In this document: in pieces, positions 3,206 through 11,537 of the stretch
How positions within the stretch are numbered: the first letter of the stretch is position 1
Layout: each line of letters begins with the position of its first letter
Assembly (NCBI GenBank): GCA_045105515.1
Contig: JBGCDR010000073.1
Coordinates: forward strand, 1-11,950
Reading direction: 5' to 3'
Source of the DNA: Oligoflexales bacterium
GTDB lineage: Bacteria; Bdellovibrionota_B; Oligoflexia; Oligoflexales; Bog-1112
DNA length: 11,950 nt
Position numbers and translations under genes: made by a program
Notes under the pieces: generated by a model
Databases searched by the model: none
Told to the model about the DNA's origin: nothing
Seen by the model: only the letters and a program-made list of their open reading frames with translations

Positions 3206-3754
3206 CTACTTAAATAACCAATCCAATTTTTCTTCCATATCTGCTTGCGGATTAAAGGGATGATCATCAATCTCAATTGCCCTAGCAGTGTCTTCTTGAT
3301 AGCAAACAGATCCATTATCCACATCAAAGGTTATAGCAAGTTTTTTGTTTTGATAAGTAACTTCCACGGCTATAGTTCCATCAGCTATTGGCTCAATAGC
3401 TAGGCATTTGCTTTGTGTTAGATTCAATTTTCCTAAAGAGCTAAAAACACTCAGTATGAAGGTCTCTGCGACACCTAAATTATTTTTTGTAACCGGTTGG
3501 CCTAAATGTCCATCCCAACCCAAATCAAACTCACTAATCCTCTTCAACTCACTTAAAGATAGTTCTAATTCATTCTCAGTACACCTTCGCTGCGAAGTTA
3601 CAGAACATTCGTCGTTTGATATTGTTTGAGTGGTTTTTCTTTTTTCTTCAAATCCTGCGGTTCTTGTAAAACGTCTATAATAGCTCGATGAGGATGATCC
3701 GATATCTGAAAATGTAGAAGCATCATTTATGTAAGGAGCAGTACTAGCTGTCAT
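3206..3754 (-). CDS. Hypothetical 'WDG'-motif protein, putative antitoxin
   Basis: LSELKRISEFDLGWDGHLGQPV...AIEPIADGTIAVEV matches a pattern (L..L..NWDGY.A.P...P..DG.I.LEW) I recognise from TIGR04255 neighbours. The N-terminal ~60 aa are S/T-rich. ATGA overlap with the upstream gene. Confidence 0.7.
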   Translation of the reverse strand: MTASTAPYINDASTFSDIGSSSSSYYRRFTRTAGFEEKRKTTQTISNDECSVTSQRRCTENELELSLSELKRISEFDLGWDGHLGQPVTKNNLGVAETFILSVFSSLGKLNLTQSKCLAIEPIADGTIAVEVTYQNKKLAITFDVDNGSVCYQEDTARAIEIDDHPFNPQADMEEKLDWLFK

Positions 3755-4473
3755 GAATGCAAACCTCCTAAAACCTCTTTCCGGTACTTCTCTGAAATTA
3801 CTTTTTCGAACCTTGATAAAGTCAAGTCATGCAAATCATTAAGAAGATCGGAATATTCTTGACCATTTATTAGCGGTTTCTTAAAAGACAAATCAAATTG
3901 GAGAGTTACAGTTTCACCGTTTTTACGTACAGCCACTCGAACCTGCTCATTGAAATTGTCGGCTTCCAAAATTCCTTCCCCAAGTGAAATATCACTTGGA
4001 AAACGGGAGTTCTGATACTTTTTAGGTATCAATTCACCATCACAAATCAAATAAGAACCCAGCATGAAATTCCCATCAGCTATGACGGCTTCATTCTTAG
4101 CTGTTAGCGAAATGGATGATATATCAACTTTCTTAACTTCATTAACTACTTTCAAGACCTTTTTCAGAAACTCATAAAAGGAAGCCCAACCTGGATAGTC
4201 TTTGACAAAATTTACAGTAATTTCTGAAGCGGAAATTTGAACTAGTCTTGTTTTGGACTCATTCCAACATCTAAACCCAGTTGAAGCTGCAGATAAAGTA
4301 TGCCCTCCAACACTTAAATCTATGCTAGAACTAATCTCTGGCAATCCCAAACCAATGCTCTGAAATTTGGGGAAAAGTCCAAACCATGAATCCACAGACA
4401 GTTTAGCTTTTGTCAACTTGACCCCAGCATACATCTCAAGTAATGAAGGCTTATTATATTTGTATTCGCTCAT
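3751..4473 (-). CDS. TIGR04255-family protein
   Basis: N-terminal YNKPSLLEM, central RLVQISASEITVNFVKDYPGWASF and C-terminal LNDLHDLTLSRFEKVISE match the family pattern as I recall it; 240 aa. Confidence 0.75.
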   Translation of the reverse strand: MSEYKYNKPSLLEMYAGVKLTKAKLSVDSWFGLFPKFQSIGLGLPEISSSIDLSVGGHTLSAASTGFRCWNESKTRLVQISASEITVNFVKDYPGWASFYEFLKKVLKVVNEVKKVDISSISLTAKNEAVIADGNFMLGSYLICDGELIPKKYQNSRFPSDISLGEGILEADNFNEQVRVAVRKNGETVTLQFDLSFKKPLINGQEYSDLLNDLHDLTLSRFEKVISEKYRKEVLGGLHS

Positions 4474-4723: not shown

Positions 4724-4771
4724 TGTAGTAAACCTAAGCTTACTACAAGCCCTTACTACAAATTACTACAA
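4724..4771. repeat. Integrase arm-type-like repeats, TTACTACAA x3 plus one inverted copy
   Basis: TTACTACAA at 4740-4748, 4753-4761 and 4763-4771; inverted TGTAGTAA at 4724-4731. They lie ~120-170 bp from the att core. Confidence 0.75.
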
Positions 4772-4892
4772 CTCAGATTATTTTAACTGATTTAAAGTGA
4801 TATCGCCTCAAAGGCTGAGGAACCATACTCGATAAGCTTATGTTTTTATTATCAGTGGTTTTAAGTAGGGTTTCAAGAAGTGTGTTTAAGCG

Positions 4893-4969: not shown

Positions 4970-6064
4970 TTACGATTTTGACTCAAAGTTGATTACTTTC
5001 CCCAGGGATGCTTCGTGATCATGAAGATTAAGACAATCGGTGATTCCTTTTATAGCAATACCAGCCTTACGTATGTAGATCATCATGGTCTTCATATCCT
5101 TCCAACCACCCATCATCATGACTTTTGCTGGAGCCACATTTTTAGAAAGCATCAGTGTTGCCCATGTGGCCCTTAAATCATGAAACCGCACCTCAGGTAA
5201 GCGTATGCCAAATAGAAACTTTCGAAGCTCTCTAGCTTGCTCTCCTTGAGTCCATTCACGCATGTGCGGTAAAACGAAATGAGTATCTACCATGGAAAGC
5301 TTAAGTTCTTTTAGAAGTGGGACTAAAGGGGCAGCGATTTCAACGATACGATCATCACCAGACTTAGTATCTTTAAATCCGCCCTTTTTAACCCAGGCTC
5401 GATCGACAAGGATTTGCCGGTTTTCAAAGTTAACTTTGTCCCAAGTCAGAGCATAAAGCTCGCCATTACGCATTCCAGTGTATAGAGCCATCGCCACATG
5501 GGGATACCATGGCCAATTCAAGGTTTTTCCTTGTTGGAGCAAAATTTTTGCATGTTCTTCCGTTAAGACCTTTTTTATCTTATCCCCAGTTTTAAAAGCC
5601 ATTTTTGGCACTGGATCACGAGATATGTATCCATTTTCAAGGGCAAAAATAAAAACCGCACGAATGTACTTGAGCATCGCCTGTTTATGACTCGGAGCGT
5701 TATCCTTGAAGTTGATAAGGATCAAGTCTCGAATCTGCTGAGTTGTAATCTCATTAATTAGAGTTGATCCCCACTGTTCAAAGGTTGCAGCCTTGATGCA
5801 TTGTTCAGAGTTGTAGATCGTAATGGGAGCTAAACCTTTGGCGCGACACGATTCAATATACTCAAGAACACAAGTTTTCCAGTTGGGGAATTTAGTTTCA
5901 TAAATTTTCCTCTCAACCTGTGCAATGAGTTCTCGCTCTACAGCCTTGATTTTTGACTTTTGTTTAACGATTCTCCGGGCATTTACAGACTTACCTGTCA
6001 TTGGGTTTCGTTTGCTATATGTTACTATCCAGTATTTCTGATCCTCAATATACCTGACACTCAT
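4970..6064 (-). CDS. int: Tyrosine recombinase / site-specific integrase
   Basis: ALYTGMRNGEL (R), DTKSG (K), FHDLRATWAT (HxxR) and GGWKDMKTMMIY (W at the H/W position, catalytic Y). N-terminal arm-binding-like region. Confidence 0.97.
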   Translation of the reverse strand: MSVRYIEDQKYWIVTYSKRNPMTGKSVNARRIVKQKSKIKAVERELIAQVERKIYETKFPNWKTCVLEYIESCRAKGLAPITIYNSEQCIKAATFEQWGSTLINEITTQQIRDLILINFKDNAPSHKQAMLKYIRAVFIFALENGYISRDPVPKMAFKTGDKIKKVLTEEHAKILLQQGKTLNWPWYPHVAMALYTGMRNGELYALTWDKVNFENRQILVDRAWVKKGGFKDTKSGDDRIVEIAAPLVPLLKELKLSMVDTHFVLPHMREWTQGEQARELRKFLFGIRLPEVRFHDLRATWATLMLSKNVAPAKVMMMGGWKDMKTMMIYIRKAGIAIKGITDCLNLHDHEASLGKVINFESKS

Positions 6065-6327
6065 AAAAACCTCTTCTTGACGATAAGGTTTCTTAAATCT
6101 TCAACTTTGTAGCGATTGCTTCTACCAAGCTTGTAGTAGGGAAGATCGCCATTGCAGCATAAGTTTAAAAGCGAAGATTCGCTTATTTTTAAATATGCGG
6201 CAGCTTCAAAGGTCGTCATCCATTCATCTGAGTTTTCAAAGAGCCTGCCACAACTACTTGCGCCAGCATATAATTCATTATTCTCGGCTGATTTGGCAAC
6301 CGTAAAATTTGATGTTTTTTGGTTCAT
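6061..6327 (-). CDS. xis: Excisionase-like HTH_17 DNA-binding protein
   Basis: WMTTFEAAAYLKISESSLLNLCCNGDLPYYKLGRSNRYKVEDL is the excisionase/HTH_17 pattern. ATGA overlap with the integrase. Confidence 0.9.
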   Translation of the reverse strand: MNQKTSNFTVAKSAENNELYAGASSCGRLFENSDEWMTTFEAAAYLKISESSLLNLCCNGDLPYYKLGRSNRYKVEDLRNLIVKKRFL

Positions 6328-6824
6328 GCCTCACCCGTCCCTTTTTTAAAACCCTTTACCAAGATGTAATTAATCAAAAGAAATCCCTTGCCAAGTGCAA
6401 CACAACTCCTCCTTGGAAGAAAAGGCTGATCAGGAAACATTCGTTTTCCATTAGAGCGTTTTTCGGCTTCCAAAAGTATTTTTTTGGACTCAGACCGTTG
6501 CGTGTTTTTAGATCTATTAAAGCAATAGTAAGATTTCCATCCTTCTGTTGAAATAACTATAAAATCCACCTTGCTTCCAACAAGAAATGCGTGAAGCTGA
6601 CGAAATAAATATGAATTATCATTTTCAATTACAGTAATTCTCACCCTTTCTTTTTGGAGGAAACCTAAAATAAACTTCAGTTGGGGAGTTTCAAAATTCT
6701 TACGATTCATAGGCAAGCACACCTTACACCCTATATTCCCAAAATAATCACACTCAATTATTGCAAAATAGTTAGAGTGAAAAGCTAAGCCCAGAATTCT
6801 TCCAATTTCTAGGGAAGTATCCAT
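6324..6824 (-). CDS. Degenerate RuvC-like (RNase H fold) protein, probably inactive
   Basis: ILGLAFHSNYFAIIE (cf. ILGIDPG..GAIA), TVIEND, FIVISTEGWKSYY (cf. Y..V.P..WK), KRMFP and GFLLINY (cf. DALLIA.Y). Confidence 0.6.
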   Translation of the reverse strand: MDTSLEIGRILGLAFHSNYFAIIECDYFGNIGCKVCLPMNRKNFETPQLKFILGFLQKERVRITVIENDNSYLFRQLHAFLVGSKVDFIVISTEGWKSYYCFNRSKNTQRSESKKILLEAEKRSNGKRMFPDQPFLPRRSCVALGKGFLLINYILVKGFKKGTGEA

Positions 6825-6826
6825 TA

Positions 6827-7351
6827 CTAATTCCTTTCTTTAAGGAATTTGCGACGGAAATATTCGCAGGGAAGTAAAGCATGAACCAACCCCTCAAAGA
6901 TCCGGTGATTATTTTTGGCAGCTGAAGGATCTTGTGATGCCAGATCCAAAGGCCAAAGATTTTTAGCTATGTGGACCCTGTCACAACCTAGAAGGGATTC
7001 ATCGTCAGTAAATTCTTTCTTTAGATCATCAAAGCAAACCAGCTTTAAATCTAGTTCCATACTATCGCATACTGCTATTAAAAAATTATAGAGTGCAATT
7101 CCATCATTAGCCTCAATGATAAGAGCATTGTCTAAGGTTAAAACCTGTTTTTCCATACATAAAAACATGTTTTTATTGTTCATTGTGAGACTGGAGATTA
7201 TTGCTAACAGCAAATGTAGATCTGCTTTACGAATACCTTTCAATAATGGAATTCGTATATTTAGGCATATTTCTCCTTTCGAATTTAGACCAATGATAGA
7301 GCCATGAATACTTGGGTATACACTTATGAATAATGGTTTTTCTAATTTCAA
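6827..7351 (-). CDS. Degenerate phage-type RuvC-like resolvase, probably inactive
   Basis: FISVYPSIHGSIIGL (cf. IGIDPG..GAIA.L), IP..KG.RKAD, LCMEKQ, LKLVCFDDLKK, AKNLWP and FEGLVHALLPCEYFRR (cf. HDGRADALLIAEYGRR). AGAGGG RBS before TTG. Confidence 0.72.
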   Translation of the reverse strand: MKLEKPLFISVYPSIHGSIIGLNSKGEICLNIRIPLLKGIRKADLHLLLAIISSLTMNNKNMFLCMEKQVLTLDNALIIEANDGIALYNFLIAVCDSMELDLKLVCFDDLKKEFTDDESLLGCDRVHIAKNLWPLDLASQDPSAAKNNHRIFEGLVHALLPCEYFRRKFLKERN

Positions 7352-7392
7352 TTTACTTTACCCTCTATTAATTTAGGCCGAACGAAGTTATT

Positions 7393-7409
7393 GCTTTGAA
7401 TTTCAAAGC
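7393..7409. promoter_or_regulatory. Perfect inverted repeat upstream of the RuvC-like/xis/int genes
   Basis: GCTTTGAA-T-TTCAAAGC in the 112-bp gap between the ATPase and first RuvC-like gene. Confidence 0.4.
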
Positions 7410-7463
7410 CAGTTTCTAATAATTTTTTGAGGTTGAACTTAATTCATGTGATTAACGACACAA

Positions 7464-8684
7464 CTAGATCGAAAACCACATTTCCACCGGTCTTACCGCG
7501 GCTGACTCAACCAATTTTTTGCCAGCAACATTAAGTTCAATCAATTTAGCTAATGCATTATCAATTTCGTGCTTGCTTTTATTTCCTTTAAGTACATCCT
7601 GACTAATCTGAGTTCTTGATAAGCCGTCGGGATTTTTCCTTAAAGTCTCAAGTACCTTGTCCGCAACACGATCACCTGTGGCTTCCCCCCACAGCAATCG
7701 ACATCCATCTTCACAGTAGCGCCACAATTCCATTGCAACTCTCAAATGCAACTCTTCTATCAGTTCCGAGCAATCAAAAACTGCAAGCAGCATAGCTAAA
7801 CGCCTTACATAAGCTGCACCACGAGCTATAGATGCACCGAAAGGGTCACAGTAATCTTTATTCAATATCGAATAAGCTTCTTTCCAAAATTGATTTGCAC
7901 TTTGTGAAACGAATATTCTTCTCGGCGAGTAGCAAAATCTTAAGCCATGTTGCAGTTTAGACACGACATTTGATAAATGGCCTTCCGGAATATCGATGGA
8001 CTCATGCAACAATTTTGATCGTGTCGAATAAACCCAGAGAAAGCGATTAACAAAGCCATTTGTATTTTCTACCTGGTTTAAGAGCTTTTTTAATTCACTA
8101 AGGGTAATGTGGCCAACAATGGTAATGTGAGGACTGGTAGCTGCATAATCGAGAGTTTTAGTAACTATCCTCAAATCTTGACCATCCCAGGCAACCCTGA
8201 TCAGTTGAGATAGTGTGGAGGATTCTCTCCCCATTGCTTTTAAGGTCCTAGCAAACTCCTCCTCTAAAAGAAATTTTCGTTTATCACTAACGCCCGGATC
8301 AAATTTTTCTTTATTAGATCTAGGTGAATAGGGGTCACGCACTATGGAAATGAGTCCTTCTCCGCTACTTGATCCGCCATTGATATAGTTTTCTTTGATC
8401 CATTCAGGATTTACCTCCTTGCAGAGATTTTTGATTCTATAAAATGACGTTCCCTTGCGAGCTGTTGATGTTGCCCCAACTATGACAACATAGATCAAGC
8501 AAGGTTGCTTTCTACCATCAATTAGTTGATAAACTTTGTTGCCAATCATACAACCTAAAAGCGAAAACAGTTGATAAAGCATCGCTTCCTTACTTGCTTC
8601 CGTATATGGCGCTATCAATTGAATTGATTCGCCGATAGGGCCGTAATATGCCCACTCAGGTAGAGGCTTAGGCTTTAACATCAT
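7464..8684 (-). CDS. DUF3987/YfjI-type P-loop ATPase (putative replication helicase) with C-terminal winged helix
   Basis: Walker A variant IVGATSTARKGTS, SSGEGL, Walker B FLLEEEF, LIRVAWDG and NGFVNRFL. The C-terminus LRKNPDGLSRTQISQ...IDNALAKLIE is wHTH-like. Confidence 0.85.
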   Translation of the reverse strand: MMLKPKPLPEWAYYGPIGESIQLIAPYTEASKEAMLYQLFSLLGCMIGNKVYQLIDGRKQPCLIYVVIVGATSTARKGTSFYRIKNLCKEVNPEWIKENYINGGSSSGEGLISIVRDPYSPRSNKEKFDPGVSDKRKFLLEEEFARTLKAMGRESSTLSQLIRVAWDGQDLRIVTKTLDYAATSPHITIVGHITLSELKKLLNQVENTNGFVNRFLWVYSTRSKLLHESIDIPEGHLSNVVSKLQHGLRFCYSPRRIFVSQSANQFWKEAYSILNKDYCDPFGASIARGAAYVRRLAMLLAVFDCSELIEELHLRVAMELWRYCEDGCRLLWGEATGDRVADKVLETLRKNPDGLSRTQISQDVLKGNKSKHEIDNALAKLIELNVAGKKLVESAAVRPVEMWFSI

Positions 8685-8895
8685 TTGATTTACCTGTACT
8701 TGTTTGATTCAGATATTTGGCTAGTTTTTCAATACTTTCCTGATTCGGAGTCGACCCTTTAAACCAAGACAATGCTGTCGTGTAACGTACTCCTATGGCC
8801 TTACTCAATTTTTCTTTTGATCCGGCCCTTTTAAATGCTTCATTCACCCACATCTCTATTTTATTACCGTCAATACATTCATCTGGATTAAACAT
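8668..8895 (-). CDS. Small Cro/XRE-like HTH protein
   Basis: GSKEKLSKAIGVRYTTALSWFKGSTPNQESIEKLAKYL; strong AGGGAGG RBS; first gene of the leftward operon. Confidence 0.88.
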   Translation of the reverse strand: MFNPDECIDGNKIEMWVNEAFKRAGSKEKLSKAIGVRYTTALSWFKGSTPNQESIEKLAKYLNQTSTGKSNDVKA

Positions 8896-9035
8896 TTATC
8901 CTCCCTTTGAAGATGTAACTATTTAGTCATTCAGGTAATTAGAATACCTACTAGTTTTTTATAAAATCCTACTTATAGTATTTGTCAAAGGTGTTCTCAA
9001 AAGTCGGAAATATTGGTTTTAGAAAGGCACTTGAC

Positions 9036-9788
9036 ATGAATAAAGAAGACTCAATCGAAAACCTTTGCAGACGTTATGAGGATTTTTTAGTGAAAACAAA
9101 ATATAGAGAATTTTTTAAACCACCAGAGCATTTCAAAAGATTTGCTTCAAAAATGGCTGAAATTAGGCCAGAAACAGCAAAGTGCATCTATGAATCCCAA
9201 TTTAACATTTTTTGCTTACTGGAGAGTGCGGTAAAAAACTCAATACCCATAAAAGTCGATAACCAGCTAAAGGGCGACCTTCACGATCGGATATTGTTGG
9301 CCAAACATATCAAAAAAGATGTGGATCAACTGTTTGATTTAGAAATCAACCAACCCCATATACCTCTCTATTCTCTTGATACAGAGTTTAGGACGGTGGT
9401 TGCCCCCATACTTTTAGATTGGAAGAAACGTCTTGAGCGATACTACTCTGAACTTTTTCCAAAAGGGCATAGAGTTAATTGGGACTTTTTAAACAGTCTT
9501 GGTGCCACAGAAAATGCTTTTAAGCATCACCTTAAGGATATTCAAAAGAAGTTTTTTATCGAACCTTTATTTGATGAATTTTCACTATACAACTCCAGAA
9601 ACCCCATACAAGCTACGCCTATCAGATTAATCGTAAGTCTTTTAACTTGTATCGATACAGACAAATTAACGGGTAACATTAAGTTTAGAGAATCTACAAT
9701 CAAGACCAAATTAAGGTATTTTAAAGAAGATCCTTTCGATCGAGAAGTTGTATCTCTTAGGAGGAAAGGCTTCGAAATAACGTGCTAA
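9036..9788 (+). CDS. Hypothetical protein divergent from the Cro-like gene (probable start ATG 9036 rather than TTG 8982)
   Basis: Long ORF; AGAAAGG at 9021-9027 precedes ATG 9036; no recognisable family. Confidence 0.7.
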   Translation: MNKEDSIENLCRRYEDFLVKTKYREFFKPPEHFKRFASKMAEIRPETAKCIYESQFNIFCLLESAVKNSIPIKVDNQLKGDLHDRILLAKHIKKDVDQLFDLEINQPHIPLYSLDTEFRTVVAPILLDWKKRLERYYSELFPKGHRVNWDFLNSLGATENAFKHHLKDIQKKFFIEPLFDEFSLYNSRNPIQATPIRLIVSLLTCIDTDKLTGNIKFRESTIKTKLRYFKEDPFDREVVSLRRKGFEITC

Positions 9789-10420: not shown

Positions 10421-10984
10421 ATGAAATTTTCTACACTATTGACCTTATTTATCAGTCTAGCTCAACCGTTTACAGCCATTTATGGATCTAGTCACACCTC
10501 ACTTTCCAAATCCAATAAGACCGAACAAGTTGCAATTGAAATTCTTGATACTATGGCCGAGCGCCTAAGAATAATGCCCGAAGTCGCGAAGTGGAAAGCT
10601 ATTAATAACAAACCGATTGACGATTTCGAAAGAGAAAATCAACTGCTAAAAAAGCTCGAGAAACAAGGCGCTGACTTAGGCCTCGAAGCAGAATTTATCA
10701 GAACATTCTTTCAAGCCCAATTTGACGCAGCAAAAATCTATCAACGCCAATTTATAGAAGCGAACCGCACTAAATCTGATTTTGATTCGGTGCAAGATCT
10801 TAACAATGAAATTAGGCCCAAAGTCACTCAACTAACTAATAGGATACTAAACCTGCTTAGCGACTTGAAAAAGTCAGGTTTGTCACCAAAAGAAATAAAA
10901 GGACTCGTCGATCAAAATTCGGGACTACTCTATGGGTTTGATGATGAGGTTGTAAAAAAATCCCTTGAAGCATTCAATAGCTAG
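10421..10984 (+). CDS. aroQ: Secreted/periplasmic chorismate mutase, AroQ gamma subclass
   Basis: N-terminal signal peptide. ERLRIMPEVAKWKAINNKPIDDFERENQLL, FFQAQFDAAKIYQ and DLNNEIRPKV are characteristic *AroQ motifs. GAAGGA RBS. Confidence 0.92.
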   Translation: MKFSTLLTLFISLAQPFTAIYGSSHTSLSKSNKTEQVAIEILDTMAERLRIMPEVAKWKAINNKPIDDFERENQLLKKLEKQGADLGLEAEFIRTFFQAQFDAAKIYQRQFIEANRTKSDFDSVQDLNNEIRPKVTQLTNRILNLLSDLKKSGLSPKEIKGLVDQNSGLLYGFDDEVVKKSLEAFNS

Positions 10985-11012: not shown

Positions 11013-11537
11013 TTATTTGATAACGTCGATCAATTCCTGCAAAGTCTCAACGACTTTTTCGTTAGCCTTGCTCTTCTTCGTGTTACCTACTCTTGAAAGA
11101 AAATTTAGAGCTTTTTCTAACTTTCCTAGTCCATTTTCATCAAAAAGTTTTAAGGCCAACACTTGATCTTCGATCGAAAGATCCTGAAATTTTTTATAGA
11201 TTTTATAAAATAAAGGGTCTTCATTGAGTGACTCATTACCCTCTATATAGCCAAAAAAATCGGTTCCAGTCATATCCATCATACTTGCATACTTCTGAAT
11301 ATCTACGATGCTATTTATAAGTGCATTTTCCCCACTGGTACGACTTTCTAGTCTTTCTACATGAGATTGTGATGCAGCCATTTCTTTTGCTAATTGTTTC
11401 TGTGTCCAACCCTTTTTAGCACGAAGAGTTTTAAGAAGATGAACAAGTCTCAACTGAAGTTTAAGCTTAAAAGGCTTCACAAACTTCCTTCCCATTGATA
11501 CAAAGAACTTGCAATAAACTGAGGGTGGCTTGGACAC
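11013..11537 (-). CDS. XRE-family HTH regulator (true start may be ATG at 11495)
   Basis: LKTLRAKKGWTQKQLAKEMAASQSHVERLES is an XRE HTH, followed by a helical C-terminal region. Confidence 0.85.
   Translation of the reverse strand: MSKPPSVYCKFFVSMGRKFVKPFKLKLQLRLVHLLKTLRAKKGWTQKQLAKEMAASQSHVERLESRTSGENALINSIVDIQKYASMMDMTGTDFFGYIEGNESLNEDPLFYKIYKKFQDLSIEDQVLALKLFDENGLGKLEKALNFLSRVGNTKKSKANEKVVETLQELIDVIK

Follow-up and report, generated by a model that had tools for sequence, protein, structure and literature searches.

Two adjacent orphan genes with a predicted RuvC-like fold in the excisionase-integrase gene string of a mobile element from an Oligoflexales bacterium

The DNA analysed here, which we call the window, is a whole contig of 11,950 bases (JBGCDR010000073.1 in assembly GCA_045105515.1) from an Oligoflexales bacterium whose assembly comprises 6.29 Mb in 461 contigs and is 90.9% complete. 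Its minus strand carries a string of six genes running from 8895 to 4970, namely a regulator of the HTH_3 (helix-turn-helix) type, a DUF3987 protein, two open reading frames (ORFs) of 174 and 166 amino acids, an excisionase of the HTH_17 type (xis) and an integrase (int) (Table 1). With a tyrosine integrase and an HTH_17 excisionase at one end and a DUF3987 helicase gene among its members, the string would represent a small integrative and probably self-replicating element. The two ORFs, here called ORF174 and ORF166, are the subject of this report. They are real, intact genes that form a cassette private to this element, and structural models suggest that both encode proteins of the RuvC/RNase H-like fold, in which the residues needed for cleavage are at least partly lost.

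Table 1. Position and assignment of the features of the gene string and of the adjoining repeat (- denotes the minus strand)
Feature	Position	Strand	Basis
75-amino-acid HTH_3 (Cro/CI-type) regulator	8668..8895	-	Pfam HTH_3, E 2.2e-06; PHROG transcriptional regulators
406-amino-acid DUF3987 protein, replicative helicase-type	7464..8684	-	Pfam PF13148, E 9.3e-12; PHROG helicase/primase families
112-nucleotide spacer from DUF3987 to ORF174, in which the upstream junction of the cassette lies	7352..7463	-	sequence read
ORF174, orphan, 174 amino acids, isoelectric point (pI) 6.5, predicted RuvC/RNase H-like fold	6827..7351	-	ORF; ESM Atlas model
ORF166, orphan, basic, 166 amino acids, pI 9.6, predicted RuvC/RNase H-like fold	6324..6824	-	ORF; ESM Atlas model
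88-amino-acid excisionase/AlpA-type HTH_17 protein (xis)	6061..6327	-	Pfam HTH_17, E 6.8e-12
364-amino-acid tyrosine integrase (int)	4970..6064	-	Pfam Phage_integrase, E 1.4e-18; phrog_1, E 9.4e-50
Attachment (att)-like repeat just past the integrase gene	4751..4888		direct repeat; partner copy 208-324

An earlier, sequence-only reading of this DNA had described two adjacent ORFs of these lengths within 6324..7351 and their tight coupling to xis and int, and both statements hold. The two frames are present and intact on the minus strand. ORF174 starts with TTG at 7351, with GAGGG ahead of it and an in-frame TAA three codons upstream. The ATG of ORF166 at 6824 lies in another frame, 2 nucleotides (nt) past the stop of ORF174, and is preceded by AAAGGAA. 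The stop of ORF166 and the start of xis overlap in ATGA, xis and int overlap by 4 nt, and at the head of the string the HTH_3 gene overlaps the DUF3987 gene by 17 nt. No terminator-like site was found on the minus strand from 9200 to 4700; both sites detected belong to the plus strand. Because the cassette sits within a string leading into both xis and int, the pair is likely cotranscribed with them. Promoter-like sites did not exceed chance expectation (10 seen, 11.1 expected), and no RNA run is listed among the sequencing runs that contain the contig. Three DNA sequencing runs, all from one study, hold an identical contig of 11,733 bases, with no variants, joints or excised form. The G+C content of the two genes is 0.35-0.36, against 0.41 for the DUF3987 and integrase genes on either side. 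In the spacer ahead of ORF174, the region 7340-7475 folds no better than its shuffled versions (z 0.25). The same spacer contains a 15-nt perfect palindrome, CTTTGAAATTCAAAG, at 7394-7408, which might function as an operator or as an element of an origin.

Related islands were compared in order to place the pair in its context. Homologues of the DUF3987 protein occur in 4 of the 100 relatives' genomes searched, with 29-38% identity, and a separate scan of contigs with the same protein gave no relative. Two of these four loci (L009 and L010) share the order PrimPol/PriCT, DUF3987, no or one small ORF, HTH_17 xis and integrase. The xis of the element is 65% and 51% identical to that of the related islands. 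The closest sister island, L010 (same family), has an integrase 67% and a xis 65% identical; its DUF3987 gene and xis are 66 nt apart, whereas the distance here is 1.1 kb, and DNA similarity to L010 restarts only inside xis. The PrimPol/PriCT gene found upstream of DUF3987 in L009 and L010 (PF09250, E about 1e-31) is missing among the 14 window ORFs that were scanned with Pfam. The corresponding slot is occupied here by the HTH_3 gene.

Integrase relatives were present in 13 of 130 other genomes of the phylum, and ten further xis-int loci (integrases 33-59% identical) were compared. Ahead of their xis stand either other modules or ORFs that belong to no Pfam family. The modules include a Toprim-D5 primase-helicase, a family A DNA polymerase, DUF3987 and, in three loci, MobA/VirD2 relaxases; in one locus an ORF of 127 amino acids belonging to no family precedes xis, and an FtsK-like ATPase is encoded about 2 kb beyond it. 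The same xis-int pair in the company of differing upstream modules clearly reflects module shuffling around a recombination cassette. Relatives of ORF174 or ORF166 were found in none of the 12 related xis-int loci. The two genes are a 1.1-kb cassette private to this element, inserted between DUF3987 and xis.

The backbone itself has a described counterpart. In mobile elements that bear an integrase, DUF3987 helicases and PrimPol primases work together in replication as one module, and 5'-3' helicase activity has been demonstrated for a PriCT-DUF3987 protein (PMC11724360). The element resembles those AgaPP-AgaPH elements in its combination of integrase and DUF3987 helicase; it differs from them in the missing PrimPol gene and in carrying the RuvC-like pair after the helicase gene.

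The fold assignment comes from the ESM Atlas, which contains both ORF sequences letter for letter together with models of its own. The predicted template modelling score (pTM) and the mean predicted local distance difference test score (pLDDT) are 0.78 and 0.76 for ORF174 and 0.80 and 0.78 for ORF166. The nearest structural neighbours of the pair are clusters of phage RuvC, DUF3882 and Pox_A22 proteins, with template modelling (TM) scores of 0.69-0.77 over 140-168 residues. The clusters nearest to ORF174 are viral, consist of proteins of 156-199 amino acids and reach TM 0.72-0.77 over 152-168 aligned residues. In one neighbouring cluster, 84% of members bear PF02075, which passes the bar for naming; in further ones PF02075 or PF07066 is found in a minority of members. 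ORF166 has neighbours at TM 0.67-0.72 over 139-146 residues, among them rows named PF02075 and PF04848 and clusters bearing PF07066, and it matches the RuvC-like DEDD domain of IS110 transposases at TM 0.57-0.60. The two adjacent proteins would thus have reached the same fold family independently of each other in the predictions, which we count in favor of the RuvC fold. An actin-like (ASKHA) two-domain ATPase was also considered for the pair and set aside, because the proteins that neighbour each ORF in the Atlas consist of one domain and equal it in size (TM 0.66-0.79 by row), and the Asp of the first hairpin is missing in both.

RuvC possesses four catalytic carboxylates, i.e. an Asp after strand 1, a Glu after strand 4 and, on the C-terminal helix, an Asp or His and a further Asp, and two-metal catalysis by RuvC requires these acidic residues. 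In both ORFs this set is incomplete. The motif strings on which the sequence-only reading had based its claim of lost catalysis are all present: SVYPS (10-14), MEK (66-68) and HALL (157-160) in ORF174, and GLAFH (12-16), IEN (66-68) and GFLL (147-150) in ORF166. A census of aspartate and glutamate finds neither at residues 5-26 of ORF174 nor at 7-23 of ORF166, and these ranges span strand 1 and the hairpin under any register; where strand 1 ends, ORF174 has Y12 or N23, depending on which of the two plausible registers is taken. ORF166 is also free of acids at 133-164, the region of the C-terminal helix, and E67 (in VIEN) is its only acid among the positions that the sequence-only reading had mapped to RuvC catalysis. 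ORF174, for its part, retains H16, E67, E80, D136, D141, H149, E153 and H157, the last three of which follow each other at i, i+4, i+8. Since BLASTP pairs IIEAND of ORF174 with VIENDN of ORF166, the central Glu of ORF174 may be E80 rather than E67. The claimed loss of acids therefore stands for strand 1 of both proteins and for the C-terminus of ORF166, but the C-terminus and the central Glu of ORF174 are ambiguous.

We suggest that ORF174 and ORF166 are highly divergent proteins of the RuvC/RNase H fold, probably derived from phages. The fold itself we regard as probable on the strength of the models. Because the acid at the end of strand 1, with which every RuvC-type nuclease holds its metal ions, is missing in both proteins and the acids of the C-terminal helix are missing in ORF166, they are most likely not junction cutters. 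The scaffold would nevertheless have retained its structure-specific binding of DNA, and the two proteins might then act as non-cleaving binders of branched DNA, such as Holliday junctions or forks. They would be produced together with excisionase and integrase, during excision, replication or integration of the element. This complete scheme, in which diverged RuvC-fold proteins bind branched DNA and do not cleave it, is proposed tentatively, as a serious possibility that falls somewhat short of being probable. Binding to or protection of DNA junctions, poisoning of a resolvase, pairing of ORF174 with ORF166 and the biological role are what we purely infer. A complex prediction for ORF174 and ORF166, which addressed the heterodimer of the sequence-only reading, gave an interaction prediction score from aligned errors (ipSAE) of 0.00 in two runs, both performed without controls, and counts neither for nor against pairing.

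Several findings weigh against our proposal. For alignments, two reference sets were used, one of 29 canonical RuvC proteins from relatives' genomes and one of 30 RuvC proteins of the Bacillus-prophage type, seeded from an IMG/VR contig. The canonical set shows the consensus motifs RILGIDPGS, CVIE and DATDALAIAL, with invariant catalytic columns D11, E77, D150 and D153; in the prophage-type set, D8, D144 and D147 are invariant and E68 nearly so. Compared with the canonical set by hhalign, ORF174 and ORF166 reach probabilities of 0.1% and 1.3%, and each reaches 0.2% with the prophage-type set. When the ORFs are added to the two alignments by MAFFT, the catalytic columns they fall into are mutually inconsistent; because of this, the equivalences of motifs are a reading, and no residue-by-residue mapping is trustworthy. 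The catalytic mapping given above rests on the register of secondary structure instead of a significant alignment. No sequence-based method supports kinship with RuvC. The earlier claims of a RuvC-like fold and of a missing first Asp are supported by the Atlas models together with the residue census, and by no sequence method. Two local hhalign matches, both non-significant, lie in a sensible register and may be counted for the RuvC fold: residues 5-27 of ORF166 fall on RuvC strands 1-2, with RILGLAFHS opposite RILGIDPGS, and residues 90-125 of ORF174 match the helix-strand-VKK segment, LKKEFTD being aligned to VKKIITG.

Profile searches belong to the same group of adverse results. Pfam finds nothing for ORF166 and only a sub-threshold RNA_binding match for ORF174 (E 0.19). 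PF02075, PF07066, PF04848 and PF03652 have no match in either ORF at E <= 1; the last of these is the profile of YqgF/RuvX, and YqgF is the automatic name of a single Atlas feature row for ORF166 (0.92). Nothing meaningful was found in PHROGs, PADLOC or NCBIfam, and a sequence search of the PDB returned nothing for either ORF. Nor could any similarity be detected between the two proteins. BLASTP gave E 1.1, and the score of the real pair was equalled or exceeded by 432 of 2000 shuffled sequences in local alignment and by 326 of 1000 in semi-global alignment.

Homologues were sought widely. In a protein search of 5.8 billion clusters, both ORFs retrieve themselves only. Exhaustive HMMER was run with ORF174 against 1.84 billion representatives, and ORF166 was covered by word-based and six-frame searches; the former gave ORF174 itself and one protein of 579 amino acids, a match that we take as spurious (six short stretches, 21% identity). 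No credible relative of either ORF was found in 60 related genomes, where a match to ORF166 (16 bits, E 0.0088) contains an internal stop and is taken as chance, and no relative of ORF166 in 131 genomes of the phylum. By tblastn against phage records, ORF174 gave a match only at E = 4 and ORF166 none. Viral contigs of IMG/VR contained no relative of either ORF, and metagenome contigs, searched with ORF166, none of that protein. Compared with ORF174 in a single pairwise alignment, an ORF of 155 amino acids beside the serine recombinase of another locus (L011) showed a weak resemblance (E 0.038); its product is Cys-rich and of low complexity, and we do not accept it as a relative.

It had been proposed that a homologue search would reveal whether the tandem arrangement is conserved; only self-matches were retrieved. 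With no homologue in any of the collections searched from which a ratio of nonsynonymous to synonymous substitution rates (dN/dS) could be derived, there is no sign of purifying selection, and the case is weakened by being a single occurrence without relatives. The three identical sequencing runs may be the source data of the assembly, in which case they provide no independent support. Further, the candidate ligands retained by ORF174 could leave room for an unusual active site.

The structural evidence has its adverse side as well. Feature and structure searches of the Atlas amount to one source, and predicted models stand on both sides of the comparison. AlphaFold2, run without alignments, gave models of pLDDT 44.8 (ORF174) and 44.2 (ORF166), with pTM 0.31 and 0.41, and structure searches started from these low-confidence models yielded noise only. 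The order of elements in them, i.e. three strands, helix, strand, helix, strand and then helices, fits an RNase H-like core.

All this could be explained if the fold call were an artefact of the language model and the ORFs were ordinary orphan cargo unrelated to junction resolvases, for example regulators, anti-defence proteins or factors of interaction with the host. Such an explanation agrees with the blank outcome of every sequence and profile search and with the low pTM of the AlphaFold models, and it gains from the way the Atlas works, since nearest clusters are listed even if none is related and most feature hits of the ORFs are unnamed (28 of 30 and 27 of 30). It does not easily account for TM scores of 0.67-0.77 that extend over nearly the full length, are normalised on both sides, involve proteins of the same size and were obtained for both ORFs independently. 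The compatible order of secondary structure also argues against it. Moreover, phage replication modules often place the resolvase gene directly after the replication helicase, and this typical position is the one in which the pair is found. We consider an artefact unlikely, though it deserves to be taken seriously.

A different possibility is that the proteins have the fold and that one of them still cuts DNA. ORF174 might hold a non-canonical metal site composed of H16, E67 or E80, D136 or D141 and, on one face of a helix, H149, E153 and H157, and ORF166 would be its non-catalytic DNA-binding partner, in agreement with its basic character. Acids and histidines are indeed found in ORF174 where RuvC has the second to fourth catalytic residues, and the three helical ones are regularly spaced. 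If such an asymmetric enzyme made nicks or single cuts, it could serve the initiation of replication and so offset the PrimPol gene that L009 and L010 have and the element lacks. However, an acid at the end of strand 1 is regarded as indispensable in RNase H-like nucleases, and ORF174 has none there in either register. Our estimate for an asymmetric nuclease is accordingly low.

The two genes could also be remnants, now in decay and devoid of present function, of one phage resolvase gene or of two, gained by recombination with a phage replication module. Catalytic residues are gone, the pair occurs once in all collections searched, sister islands manage without it, and its G+C content is below that of the flanking genes. 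On the other hand, frames of 174 and 166 codons have stayed intact in AT-rich DNA prone to stop codons, and start codons, ribosome-binding sites and overlaps are preserved. Divergence that goes beyond recognition by sequence, in combination with intact frames, is unlike fresh decay, and the cassette lies within the gene string ending in xis and int, with which it is likely cotranscribed. Simple decay is therefore about as improbable, in our opinion, as the asymmetric nuclease. Finally, it is hardly credible that the pair is one gene of about 340 amino acids, a two-domain RNase H-like pseudo-dimer split by a frameshift (error, mutation or programmed event): the gap is only 2 nt with a frame offset and the ORF166 frame contains no stop in the 5 codons that precede its ATG, but this ATG and a ribosome-binding site belong to ORF166 itself, the junction contains no slippery heptamer, the contigs of the three runs (possibly the source data) show no indel there and exhaustive HMMER with ORF174, run without a length filter, found no longer relative.

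Returning to the proposal of diverged, non-cleaving RuvC-fold proteins, it is useful to compare it with known systems. Phage-type RuvC proteins (PF02075, PF07066 and PF04848; e.g. RuvC of phage bIL67, PMC3864405) share with the pair the size of approximately 160-180 amino acids, the predicted fold, a Glu in mid-protein that follows a hydrophobic strand and the bias of the nearest Atlas clusters to viruses. Unlike them, the pair has no profile or sequence match and no acid at the end of strand 1, and the C-terminal helix of ORF166 is devoid of acids. Phage-type RuvC is furthermore encoded by one gene and works as a homodimer, whereas two dissimilar genes stand in tandem here.

Two further systems concern the absence of cleavage. 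A catalytically dead engineered RuvC (RuvCDef) binds and traps junctions in vivo (PMC5222578), so the concept of a cleavage-free RuvC scaffold that binds four-way junctions and blocks their processing has a precedent. RuvCDef is a laboratory point mutant of the E. coli protein (PMC5222578); here the loss would be natural and would affect several positions, and junction binding is putative. Mrs1, a non-cutting splicing cofactor of yeast mitochondria that evolved from junction resolvases of the Cce1 type, is a natural resolvase derivative which binds nucleic acid in a structure-specific manner and does not cut it (PMC2813881). It is a eukaryotic, RNA-binding protein encoded by a single gene, which sets it apart from our pair, and no relation of it to ORF174 or ORF166 was detected. 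Literature searches on inactive RuvC, on RuvC-like genes in connection with satellites or DUF3987, on degenerate phage RNase H-like proteins and on resolvases in satellite interference, supplementary files aside, returned no tandem degenerate RuvC-like pair in a xis-int operon. The earlier statement that no such system has been described thus holds for the tandem arrangement, which is new, but non-catalytic derivatives of resolvases are known as a kind.

The most far-reaching version of the proposal is a natural trap for Holliday junctions. ORF174 and ORF166, produced along with excisionase and integrase, would form a heteromeric, non-cutting RuvC-fold clamp that shields the element's own recombination or replication junctions from host processing of the RuvABC type; alternatively, they would constitute a dominant-negative resolvase which prevents the DNA of a competing or helper phage from being debranched before packaging. 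We give this version little chance of being correct. Its dominant-negative variant would represent an interference factor of a new kind. If the proposal of non-cleaving RuvC-fold proteins holds, the pair would be a natural counterpart of the laboratory dead-RuvC trap, located within an excision-integration operon. It would then become testable whether resolvase scaffolds that do not cut help mobile elements to control or protect four-way intermediates, or to sabotage resolvases of their rivals. If the fold is as predicted, RuvC-fold proteins on mobile elements can drift past the reach of profile methods.

The resolvases of the host are of interest in this respect. The organism's own assembly has no RuvC match to PF02075, which was present in 39 of 40 relatives; its RuvC gene probably lies in the unassembled part. 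If RuvC were truly absent from the host genome, this would be relevant to the role of the RuvC-like pair. YqgF/RuvX (PF03652) was found in none of 41 genomes of the order, and the same search was positive in 10 of 14 control genomes; it is unusual for RuvX to be missing from an entire order.

Att-like direct repeats lie at 208-324 and 4751-4888. They comprise the families D2, D3/D11 and D5, are 80-95% identical at a spacing of 4543-4565 nt, total about 120-140 nt and have no third copy in the window, which also contains no tRNA gene. The repeats bracket the far side of the integrase gene and not the operon side. The segment between them encodes a secreted SNase-like nuclease (386-850), an unknown protein of 378 amino acids, an XRE regulator, an unknown protein of 182 amino acids and a TIGR04255-family protein (3751-4473). 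This layout looks like tandem islands with a shared att site, or like an integrase-less element mobilised in trans.

On the other side of the string, an ORF of 268 amino acids (8982-9788, plus strand) is divergently oriented; it belongs to no Pfam family and has only a weak PADLOC match to CARF_HEPN (E 0.0029, 14.8 bits). The element is adjoined by a gene for a gamma-subclass AroQ chorismate mutase with a signal peptide (10421-10984, plus strand; TIGR01806, E 5.9e-26), which is followed on the opposite strand by a gene for a helix-turn-helix protein of 174 amino acids (11013-11537).

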